DNA from: Candidatus Aenigmatarchaeota archaeon | GTDB lineage: Archaea; Aenigmatarchaeota; Aenigmatarchaeia; Aenigmatarchaeales; Aenigmatarchaeaceae | NCBI GenBank assembly: GCA_043814985.1 | Contig: JBDRJK010000013.1 | Location: forward strand, 1-52,827 | Length of the DNA: 52,827 nt | Reading direction: 5' to 3' | Part shown: positions 9,999 through 48,305 of the stretch, one piece after another | Position numbering within the stretch: the stretch's first letter is position 1 | Layout of the letters: every line of letters begins with the position of its first letter | Notes under the pieces: generated by a model | The model's input: the letters and a program-made list of their open reading frames with translations, nothing else | Databases searched by the model: none | Told to the model about the DNA's origin: nothing | Position numbers and translations under genes: made by a program

Positions 9999-10102
9999 GC
10001 CTCGGTAGCTCAGCTTGGATTAGAGCGACTGACGAAAGGTCGAACCTCCTATTCATCTGAGAAGAAAGCAGTAGGTCGCGCGTTCAAATCGCGTCCGGGG
10101 CA
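9999..10102 (+). tRNA. tRNA-Arg(CCT) with two introns (30/31: 10032-10044; 37/38: 10052-10066)
   Basis: Acceptor GCCTCGG/CCGGGGC; T-arm GCGCG-TTCAAAT-CGCGT. Removing both introns gives ACTGC-CT-CCT-AA-GCAGT. The first intron is a strict BHB (CGAC/GTCG); the second is relaxed (CTCC/GAAG). A20 in the D-loop fits Arg. Confidence 0.85.
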
Positions 10103-10103
10103 C

Positions 10104-20277: not shown

Positions 20278-20389
20278 AGCCCCGTCGTCTAGTGGTCAAG
20301 GATAACGGGCTTTGGTCATGCGACTAAAGCACTGAGCTTTTAGCTGTGAAAGAAACCCGTTGACGTAGGTTCGAATCCTACCGGGGCTA
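20278..20389 (+). tRNA. tRNA-Gln(TTG) with 39-nt canonical 37/38 intron (20316-20354)
   Basis: AGCCCCG/CGGGGCT acceptor; ACGGG-CT-TTG-G|A-CCCGT; BHB central helix CTTT/AAAG; T-loop TTCGAAT. Confidence 0.93.
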
Positions 20390-20436
20390 CTATTAATATT
20401 TAAACTTTGATTGATAATACAAAAAGAGTGATAATA

Positions 20437-26815: not shown

Positions 26816-26827
26816 CAATGCCGAGAT
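26806..26827 (+). repeat. Tandem duplication of tRNA-Ser 5' end (GCCGAGAT x2)
   Basis: GCCGAGATAGC at 26806 (contains the LAGLIDADG stop codon) and GCCGAGATCGC at 26820. Confidence 0.75.
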
Positions 26828-26924
26828 CGCATAACCTGGTAGTGCGCTAGATTTCGTAAAAGAAAGGCGAACCTGGAAAGCTAGTTTCCGCAAGGATATG
26901 GGGGTTCAAATCCCTCTCTCGGCG
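26820..26924 (+). tRNA. tRNA-Ser(GGA) with 21-nt non-canonical 30/31 intron (26851-26871)
   Basis: GCCGAGA/TCTCGGC acceptor, G73, long variable arm TCC-GCAA-GGA. Spliced anticodon arm CTAGC-CT-GGA-AA-GCTAG. BHB central helix CGCT/GGCG. Confidence 0.92.
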
Positions 26925-26961
26925 CTCACATTTAAATTGAAGCTAATATAAAAATTAGAAT

Positions 26962-47501: not shown

Positions 47502-47699
47502 ATGTTTTTGAGAAAGAAAAAAGCGACAAAGAAAAAGCCCAAAAGAAAGACAGCAAAGAAGAAACCAGCTTTCGGCGGCTACATGATAAAGCCGGACGAG
47601 AACTTTGCAAAGATAGTCGGGAGCAAGCCATTGTCTCCCTCTCAGATGACAAAGCAGGTCTGGGTCTACATCAAGAAGAAGAAGCTTGCAAATAAGTGA
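47502..47699 (+). CDS. SWIB/MDM2-domain protein with Lys-rich N-terminus
   Basis: P...FAKIVG..PLS..QMTKQVWVYIKKKKL matches the SWIB consensus. Confidence 0.8.
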   Translation: MFLRKKKATKKKPKRKTAKKKPAFGGYMIKPDENFAKIVGSKPLSPSQMTKQVWVYIKKKKLANK

Positions 47700-47768
47700 A
47701 GCAGTCGGACTTTGAAAAAGTGCAAATTCTGTAAGATTTAAAAATGTAGGAATATCTAAAATTCTTAG

Positions 47769-47923
47769 GCCGCTGTGGCAGAACCAGGTTAATGCGCCAG
47801 ACTTGAGGACAAATGATTAGATGGCTTGACTCTGATTAGCGGAGCATGAAGAGTGATAGGCGGAATGATGTCAAGTTATCTGGTGCCCGCAAGGGCTTGC
47901 AGGTTCAAATCCTGCCGGCGGCG
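47769..47923 (+). tRNA. tRNA-Ser(TGA) with 70-nt 37/38 intron (47808-47877)
   Basis: GCCGCTG/CGGCGGC acceptor, G73; CCAGA-CT-TGA-G|A-TCTGG; variable arm GCCC-GCAA-GGGC; BHB central helix CTTG/CAAG. Confidence 0.93.
47808..47877 (+). ncRNA. Intron-encoded box C/D guide sRNA
   Basis: Terminal stem GACA/TGTC; C box ATGATTA (47813-19); 12-nt guide; D' CTGA (47832-35); C' ATGAAGA (47846-52); 12-nt guide; D ATGA (47865-68). Confidence 0.82.
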
Positions 47924-47957
47924 CCTCTTTTTTATTTAGAAAAATAAATAAAGTTAT

Positions 47958-48305
47958 ATGGTATTTTTAGCCCAGATGATACCGTTTTCAGCAAGTTCCA
48001 TAATATCTATTGCTATCAGTATTGGCTTCAGCGCAGCGACAGTCTGGCTGAGCGCGCAACTTGTCACAGGCAGCGCATCATTGAAGGGTGCACTAATATT
48101 CTCTGTGCTGGCATACATAGTCCTCTATTTCTTGGTATTCATTCCAATACCATCAATCCCCTTTGTCAGTCTAACGATTCTAATTGAAGTACTGCTAAAA
48201 AGCCTGTTTGCTATGAAGTTCTTCAATACAGACTTCCGCAAGGGAATATCCATAGCAGGCGTGCAAACCCTGTTCGGCTTCATGCTTATTATACCCTACT
48301 TCTAG
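47958..48305 (+). CDS. Hypothetical 4-TM membrane protein
   Basis: Nearly entirely hydrophobic 115-aa ORF. Confidence 0.75.
   Translation: MVFLAQMIPFSASSIISIAISIGFSAATVWLSAQLVTGSASLKGALIFSVLAYIVLYFLVFIPIPSIPFVSLTILIEVLLKSLFAMKFFNTDFRKGISIAGVQTLFGFMLIIPYF

Follow-up and report, generated by a model that had tools for sequence, protein, structure and literature searches.

A circular box C/D RNA from the tRNA-Ser(UGA) intron of an Aenigmatarchaeota archaeon carries a conserved guide probably aimed at the 16S rRNA decoding site

Is the 70-nt intron of an archaeal tRNA-Ser(UGA) gene itself a functional guide RNA, and if so, which molecule does it guide? The question is raised by contig C13 of the genome of a Candidatus Aenigmatarchaeota archaeon (G000; 808 kb, 21 contigs, 40% G+C, 91% complete), all 52,827 nucleotides of which make up the window analyzed here. 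The original prediction, made from the letters of the window, held that the intron is a complete box C/D RNA that apparently acts in trans. We find that the intron is a real, expressed, and circular box C/D RNA. One of its two guides, the D' guide, is conserved among relatives and is probably aimed in trans at the decoding site of 16S rRNA, where it would direct methylation of a single nucleotide.

A type-II tRNA with anticodon UGA was located at 47769-47923 (Rfam tRNA model, 43.6 bits). ARAGORN detected no tRNA in the window at default settings; in intron mode, which was required, it reported tRNA-Ser(tga) with a 70-nt intron. One copy of tRNA-Ser(UGA) was found in the assembly. The intron occupies the canonical 37/38 position within a canonical bulge-helix-bulge (BHB) motif and its adjoining helices (hBHBh'), in which every pair is Watson-Crick: a 5-bp anticodon stem, a 4-bp central helix (CUUG/CAAG) with its two 3-nt bulges, and a 3-bp inner helix. 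Cuts are predicted after 47807 in the 5' bulge and after 47877 in the 3' bulge, and the genome encodes both the splicing endonuclease EndA (97.6 bits) and the ligase RtcB (575.8 bits). The parts of the gene are as follows:

47769..47807, + strand: 5' exon of tRNA-Ser(UGA), with anticodon UGA at 47804-47806 (Rfam; ARAGORN in intron mode)
47797..47811, + strand: 5' side of hBHBh' (anticodon stem 47797-47801, CUUG 47802-47805, bulge AGG 47806-47808, ACA 47809-47811)
47808..47877, + strand: 70-nt BHB intron, the box C/D RNA (all-Watson-Crick BHB; RNA contigs span exactly the intron)
47869..47883, + strand: 3' side of hBHBh' (UGU 47869-47871, CAAG 47872-47875, bulge UUA 47876-47878, anticodon stem 47879-47883)
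47878..47923, + strand: 3' exon of tRNA-Ser(UGA), with a long variable arm (Rfam; ARAGORN in intron mode)

Inside the intron lie all four boxes (C, D', C', and D) and two 12-nt spacers, with the UGA and GA cores of the boxes intact; intron, boxes, and spacers were each found where they had been predicted:

47813..47819, + strand: C box AUGAUUA, with the canonical G6 replaced by U (read from sequence; AUGA core kept in relatives)
47820..47831, + strand: D' guide GAUGGCUUGACU, 12 nt (positions 2-11 upstream of D' pair with the organism's own 16S rRNA)
47832..47835, + strand: D' box CUGA (CUGA in 67 of 70 unique elements)
47846..47852, + strand: C' box AUGAAGA (read from sequence; 10 nt between D' and C')
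47853..47864, + strand: D guide GUGAUAGGCGGA, 12 nt, of the class called A below, which is confined to this family
47865..47868, + strand: D box AUGA, with the canonical C1 replaced by A, which pairs with U6 of the C box

A terminal stem GACA/UGUC had also been proposed. It can form after excision; in the precursor the BHB uses G47808 and C47872, so that a 3-bp inner helix (ACA/UGU) stands in its place. A loose pattern for dual-guide C/D RNAs yielded only 24 matches in the 808-kb genome, and the intron was among the best three. No Rfam C/D family matched at its gathering score; four sub-threshold matches, all to CD-box families, scored 10-13.4 bits against cut-offs of 42-75. A scan of the genome for half-units found rRNA runs scoring at least 9.5 in 36 of 209 units, and a score of 9.5 is therefore not discriminating.

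Evidence of expression came from four metatranscriptome runs belonging to four studies, each containing part of the stretch, whose contigs were placed on window positions 47600-48100. In all four runs the contigs covered 47808-47877 only. The exons and 200-nt flanks had no cover in these RNA contigs, nor was spliced tRNA-Ser(UGA) seen in them; we do not take the lack of exon and flank cover as evidence about the tRNA. In three runs the contigs contained a joint at which position 47877 is followed directly by 47808, a step back of 70 nt: X17 (depth 447.6, 0 differences), X18 (depth 3), and X20 (depth 19.1). In X19 the loose ends of the contig were the intron's own opposite ends, wrapping as in the other runs. 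The RNA contigs were each 100 nt long, which would correspond to the 70-nt cycle plus an assembler overlap. A second X17 contig represented a related intron, wrapped likewise. The joint indicates that the intron occurs in circular form, closed precisely at both BHB cut sites, and thus that it is excised in vivo at the predicted splice sites. A circle released by tRNA splicing was what the original prediction had anticipated. From what two reports say of archaeal tRNA introns (PMC7994747, PMC3491384), we suggest that RtcB makes this circle.

What does the RNA guide? Both guides were searched against the genome's own rRNAs, the 16S at C21:1700-3285 and the 23S at C19:27642-30805. Positions 2-11 of the D' guide form 10 contiguous Watson-Crick pairs with own 16S nt 1464-1473; shuffled D' guides equaled this in 34 of 5000 cases. 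Under the N+5 rule, by which the nucleotide opposite guide position 5 is modified, the target is A1467. We take A1467, from alignment to the E. coli numbering, to be the equivalent of Escherichia coli A1408 at the top of helix 44, in the decoding site. That equivalence is consistent with Dennis et al. (2015; PMC4644070), the available parts of which predict C/D methylation at the A1408 equivalent in Sulfolobus acidocaldarius and Nanoarchaeum equitans and place the site "adjacent to C1407". A guide aimed in trans at rRNA was borne out, at another place than the one first named: own 16S sequence at nt 50-60, CUUAGCCAUGCG, gives only 6 pairs with the D' guide, and helix 44 fits instead. Two other sets of targets were considered and rejected. 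Own 16S 1509-1518 forms 10 pairs with the D' guide, with a G-U pair at N+5, and the site is not conserved in two relatives (G001, G006); in 23S the best matches were only 8-9 pairs with 1-4 G-U. None of the mature tRNAs of the genome reaches 9 pairs. A register-specific scan of the genome detected no other C- or C'-box unit aimed at 16S 1467, 1461, or 217, the latter two being candidate targets of the D guide.

Conservation of the D' half of the RNA is the second line of evidence. With the whole gene as query, a similarity search of 60 relatives returned 17 tRNA-Ser introns with C/D features, and AUGGCUUGAC was identical in 16 of the 17, with about 70% identity and variable length in the remaining intron sequence. 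The unit formed by C box, D' guide, and D' box was present in 118 of 371 genomes of the phylum, as against 0 for a reversed-pattern control. A public scan with the pattern C box, guide, and D' box, using one genome per prokaryotic species, gave 68 loci. By label, 63 of these were Aenigmatarchaeota/Aenigmarchaeota, "uncultured archaeon", or "archaeon", and 5 were other; by sequence context, 18 were inside a 16S gene, 47 were tRNA-Ser-like, of which 2 carried a non-archaeal or other label and look mis-binned, and 3 (L072, L112, L117) were rejected as chance matches in bacteria. Deduplicated, the set comprised 70 unique elements (50 tRNA-Ser-like, 17 inside the 3' end of 16S, and the 3 bacterial chance matches), of which 66 have a D' spacer of 12 nt. 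Box conservation in related introns, which had been put forward as a check, was evident in the retained AUGA core of the C box and in the D' box. Guide position 12 varied freely (A in 21, C in 19, U in 16, G in 14). The duplex of a C/D guide is limited to about 10 nt, at positions 2-11, and the free variation at position 12 fits that limit.

The guide and its target can also be compared within single genomes. A helix-44 pattern search in five genomes matched only G034, and the regions were then examined directly. Among genomes in which guide and helix 44 could both be read, 9 pair the canonical guide with GUCAAGCCAU. In G099 a C-to-U change in the guide was matched by a G-to-A change at the paired 16S position, a compensatory change. 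In G168 the same guide change, C to U, faces an unchanged 16S G, leaving a wobble pair, and in G034 the 16S target has changed from G to A and the guide is degenerate. A variant guide in G207 was rejected as a chance match within a coding region.

The D half of the RNA behaved differently among relatives, falling into three classes. Class A (GUGAUAGGCGNA) was found in 8 genomes, including the window copy. Class-B D guides are complementary to the 3' tail of 16S, and in 15 of 15 copies N+5 falls on the bracketed C in UCA[C]CUC; the class comprises 24 unique elements, located in tRNA-Ser introns and in all classifiable 16S-borne copies. In class C, the guide is complementary to the anticodon loop of its host, with N+5 at U34 in 6 of 6, a cis guide like that of tRNA-Trp. 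In G013 the D guide is degenerate. The pair between C-box position 6 and D-box position 1 covaries with class: U-A in 6 of 8 class-A and 6 of 6 class-C elements (12 of 14) and A-U in 22 of 24 class-B elements. The two box deviations in the window, earlier proposed to compensate each other, do so across the classes. The internal pair, formed by C' position 6 with D' position 1, is invariably G-C (49 of 49 classed rows).

Two sites in 16S are candidates for the class-A guide of the window. A target near nt 240 had been suggested, and 9 pairs at own 216-224, with a perfect 8-nt core and N+5 at C217, agree with it; own 1458-1467, with 10 pairs, two of them G-U, and N+5 at C1461, matches equally well, and neither match is significant alone. 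Shuffled guides equaled the C217 match in 715 of 5000 cases and the C1461 match in 533 of 5000. Variation among the 8 class-A genomes does not decide between the two.

A target at C217, in the helix-11 region, is possible, at somewhat less than even odds. There the conserved core UGAUAGGC of the guide forms Watson-Crick pairs throughout with GCCUAUCA, a sequence present in 4 of the 5 class-A genomes in which the helix-11 region was recovered (G000, G001, G002, G006), and where guide position 12 has changed from G to A (G001 and G003), pairing with U is retained. Pairing begins only at guide position 4, with positions 1 and 3 mismatched, and even position 4 is mismatched in G008, which has an A opposite it. 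Seven genomes with other D-guide classes differ in their helix-11 sequence; because guide class and helix-11 sequence are both inherited, the association is not independent evidence.

A target at C1461, directly upstream of the D' target, is almost as likely as one at C217. We take C1461, again by the E. coli numbering, to be the equivalent of E. coli C1402, a widely ribose-methylated position. Guide positions 2-11 form 10 contiguous pairs there (8 Watson-Crick, 2 G-U), and only 36 of 5000 shuffled guides matched in this way at 30 nt or less from the D' target. The site is identical in all 5 class-A genomes with the region recovered, and in G006 the 10 pairs include a single G-U. Weighed against this site are a central G-U at which a guide C would have made the match perfect, variation at guide positions 2-3 (AA in G020, leaving 8 pairs), and the distribution of the guide, restricted to one family while the site is universal. 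The footprint also shares 4 nt with the D' target, which would keep the D and D' guides from binding one 16S molecule simultaneously.

Of the partner proteins of a C/D RNA, fibrillarin (265.9 bits) and Nop5 (166.2 bits) are encoded by adjoining genes on contig C5, and L7Ae was not found in the assembly. The eL8/L7Ae model had no match in the G000 assembly or in that of its closest relative, G002; it did match in 54 of 61 relatives, among them two members of the genus, G001 and G003. The sole PF01248 match in G000 was rejected as a candidate: it is L30e, an 88-residue open reading frame between rpoA'' and nusA that scores 93 bits to NF002172 (L30e equivalog). In G001 the gene order is S28e-L7Ae-GluRS (L129), and the upstream neighbors correspond to the final 1.8 kb of contig C19 in G000 (151109-152925). 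None of the three genes has a match in G000. With S28e, L7Ae, and even GluRS missing beyond the end of C19, an assembly gap that removed at least one essential gene is the likely reason.

Several observations weigh against an RNA that guides 16S methylation in trans, or against the strength with which it can be asserted. The C box (AUGAUUA) and D box (AUGA) depart from consensus. The RNA data are assembled contigs rather than raw reads, and abundance, strand, and linear forms are unreadable from contigs. Methylation at A1467 is a prediction of the N+5 rule. The D-guide matches are not distinctive, and one is broken in G008. L7Ae lacks a match, and the explanation by a gap depends on synteny with G001. 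Much of the phylum-wide invariance came from patterns that fixed the guide, and related genomes are not independent observations; the unbiased support for conservation therefore consists of the 16 of 17 introns and the one compensatory case. Finally, the naked pre-tRNA favors pairing of the D' guide with the 3' splice region, which would rival both splicing and guiding: its minimum free energy fold is -56.7 kcal/mol, as compared with -41.3 when constrained to cloverleaf and BHB.

Could the RNA instead serve as an antisense chaperone that, by pairing at the top of helix 44 and at another place in 16S, helps the 3' domain of 16S to fold or be processed, with no transfer of methyl groups? Such roles were proposed for C/D sRNAs by Dennis et al. 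(2015), in the parts of that paper available (PMC4644070). The conserved feature is indeed pairing, with methyl transfer itself deduced; moreover, in relatives both guides address the 3' minor domain of 16S and the unit sits in introns of that domain. Retention of fibrillarin and Nop5 in an 808-kb genome argues otherwise, as do the spacer length of 12 nt and the fact that precisely positions 2-11 are invariant, which match the geometry of methylation guides. We consider a chaperone without methylation unlikely; the two roles are not mutually exclusive.

The remaining alternative is a guide in cis, as in euryarchaeal pre-tRNA-Trp, which would methylate its own precursor before splicing and for which the rRNA match would be secondary. 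The original statement that neither guide is complementary to the host tRNA is correct for the mature tRNA and not for the precursor, where the D' guide forms 11 contiguous pairs, 2 of them G-U, with the 3' end of the intron and the 3' exon (14 pairs in the minimum free energy fold, which this pairing dominates). That pairing and the class-C guides, which imply that a cis role exists in the family, speak for a guide in cis, which is nonetheless very unlikely here: the N+5 nucleotide of the pairing is intron A47873, discarded on splicing; by eye, the pairing is not kept in G001 and G003 (intron 3' ends GUCUAGAAAUCUAG) or in class-C introns; the same D' guide is kept in 16S-borne copies without a tRNA context; and the D guide of the window has no match to the host tRNA. 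We regard the pairing of the D' guide with its own precursor as incidental, or regulatory at most.

A guide acting in trans on 16S would work as follows. The tRNA-Ser(UGA) gene would supply both transcription and processing of the intronic RNA. EndA would cut both bulges, and RtcB would join the exons and circularize the intron. L7Ae, Nop5, and fibrillarin would assemble on the two kink motifs, the D' guide would pair with nascent 16S rRNA, and fibrillarin would 2'-O-methylate the nucleotide opposite guide position 5, A1467. The D guide would direct a second event, at C217 or C1461. Output of the rRNA guide would thereby be coupled to the splicing of tRNA-Ser(UGA), for which the assembly yielded a single gene, as with eukaryotic intronic snoRNAs and their hosts. 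Two further features, read from sequence, flank the gene:

47737..47744, + strand: TTTAAAAA, TATA-box-like, about 25-32 nt upstream of the tRNA start
47926..47933, + strand: T-rich run TCTTTTTT, terminator-like, directly 3' of the tRNA

From its position, TTTAAAAA is presumed to be a promoter common to tRNA-Ser(UGA) and the guide RNA; the T-rich run may act as a terminator.

Copies of the unit also lie within 16S genes. In 18 of 18 of these loci (L055, L057, L059, L067, L071, L073, L076, L082, L083, L085, L088, L089, L097, L098, L099, L103, L107, and L118; element at approximately 201-300), the target sequence of the D' guide, GUCAAGCCAA, lies 103-172 nt upstream in the same gene. By eye, the 16S-borne units occupy at least three insertion points: one follows AAGUCGCCAC, another follows GCCGUA, and a third falls within the helix-45 region. 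They resemble rRNA introns whose cargo is a guide for the very rRNA that hosts them. We can imagine the C/D unit as mobile cargo of BHB introns, the conserved half (C box, anti-helix-44 guide, and D' box) having moved between the anticodon loop of tRNA-Ser(UGA) and at least three sites near the 3' end of 16S among the Aenigmatarchaeota, perhaps via circular RNA, while the other half was repeatedly retargeted (to the 16S 3' tail, host U34, or the class-A site); tRNA and rRNA introns would then persist in such reduced genomes because they deliver guides for ribosome modification. This scenario is speculative and, in our estimation, somewhat unlikely. If true, it would be a prokaryotic counterpart to the origin of intronic snoRNAs.

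Other insertions in 16S genes were observed along the way. A second, more upstream insertion is present in G099, G168, and G169 (L130 at about 120-190, L131 at about 700-760, L132 at about 740-800); by eye, it holds a cassette of C box, guide, and D' box (GAUGAUA/AAUGAUU, about 12 nt, and a CUGA/UCGA-like box). The 16S of G000 has its own insertion of about 104 nt at nt 1161-1264 (C21 at about 2860-2963; L001 at about 2661-2764), in common with G002, in which no clear C/D boxes were seen; alignment breaks indicate its absence from G001, G006, G013, G007, and G024. Near the decoding site, 16S nt 1459 (C21:3158) is U in the genus (G000, G001, G002) and C in other genera of the family, and nt 1463 (C21:3162) is U in all Aenigmatarchaeota 16S genes compared. 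We take these two positions to be equivalent to E. coli 1400 and 1404.

Intron-bearing tRNA genes are not limited to tRNA-Ser(UGA). The window contains three more, at 9999-10103, 20278-20390, and 26820-26925, the last of which, a type-II tRNA misnamed by ARAGORN, is probably tRNA-Ser(CGA) and has a non-canonical intron. In five relatives (G020, G013, G006, G007, and G009; L009, L010, L011, L017, and L019), the tRNA-Ser(UGA) gene has, by eye, a second intron of about 35 nt directly after the 5' strand of the anticodon stem, beside the C/D intron. An Aenigmatarchaeota-type tRNA-Ser intron also appeared under two foreign labels, on a 1.2-kb contig in a Rikenella metagenome-assembled genome (L110) and under Micrarchaeota (L100), probably by mis-binning or mislabeling.

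How does this RNA compare with systems already described? The nearest relative of the guide is sR13 of N. equitans, a C/D box sRNA carrying GGCTTGACTCTGA (Dennis et al. 2015, supplementary file 1, row 259; PMC4644070). As given in the available part of that source, sR13 has the same D' guide core and D' box and likewise two 12-nt guides, and its D guide, GGAGGTGAT, is of class B, the class of most Aenigmatarchaeota copies. It is listed there as free-standing with near-consensus boxes, whereas the window copy is intronic and circular, with deviant U6-A1 boxes and a class-A D guide. On its sequence, and free-standing as so listed, sR13 is a free-standing homologue of the intron C/D RNA.

The best-known C/D RNA of a tRNA intron is that of euryarchaeal pre-tRNA-Trp (Haloferax volcanii; Pyrococcus sR50), described in the accessible portions of three reviews as targeting C34 and U39 of its own tRNA (PMC4090602, PMC7994747, PMC11408192). 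Both are dual-guide C/D RNAs nested in a BHB intron at position 37/38, with guide pairing that rivals the BHB fold and with an intronic RNA that guides. The RNA described here resides in tRNA-Ser(UGA), has no target among mature tRNAs, and points its conserved guide to 16S; N+5 of the window copy falls on neither nucleotide 34 nor 39 of the mature host, and it is the class-C relatives that keep the cis guide, with all six on U34. The tRNA-Trp of G000 (contig C19, 90142-90251) differs from its euryarchaeal counterpart in that its intron measures just 35 nt, which leaves no room for a dual-guide C/D RNA. A further comparison is the 66-nt intron found in N. equitans elongator tRNA-Met, reported, in the part of the paper available, as stable, abundant, and a potential C/D sRNA with one deviating box (Randau 2012; PMC3491384). 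It too is a stable and abundant tRNA intron with C and D box elements in a DPANN archaeon; no target is named for it in that part, whereas the Aenigmatarchaeota unit has four boxes, a conserved rRNA target, and a different host tRNA.

In the accessible portions of the reviews, dated 2014, 2021, and 2024, the tRNA-Trp intron is the only C/D-bearing tRNA intron named (PMC4090602, PMC7994747, PMC11408192). Our full-text literature search, outside of which lie most subscription-journal papers, returned no account of a C/D RNA in an intron of tRNA-Ser or of archaeal rRNA. What is known, then, is that introns can encode C/D RNAs and that the guide has a homologue in sR13; what appears new, within that search, is a C/D RNA of a tRNA intron aimed at rRNA in trans.

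Eukaryotic intronic C/D snoRNAs reside in spliceosomal introns and are released as linear RNA by debranching and exonuclease trimming. The Aenigmatarchaeota intron differs in its release, through cleavage of a BHB by a protein endonuclease and ligation to form a circle, and resembles them as a guide for rRNA methylation that would arise as a splicing by-product of a host gene and act in trans; intron-encoded snoRNAs of eukaryotes are mentioned in one review (PMC7994747). A role as rRNA guide would explain, in terms of selection, why a genome of 808 kb retains a long intron. The occurrence of the unit in 16S introns of relatives and as a free-standing homologue in Nanoarchaeum makes traffic between free genes, tRNA introns, and rRNA introns testable. 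As with intronic snoRNAs and their hosts, a tRNA intron that supplies a decoding-site guide, and whose circular product is seen in environmental RNA, would link the splicing of a tRNA to the maturation of the ribosome.

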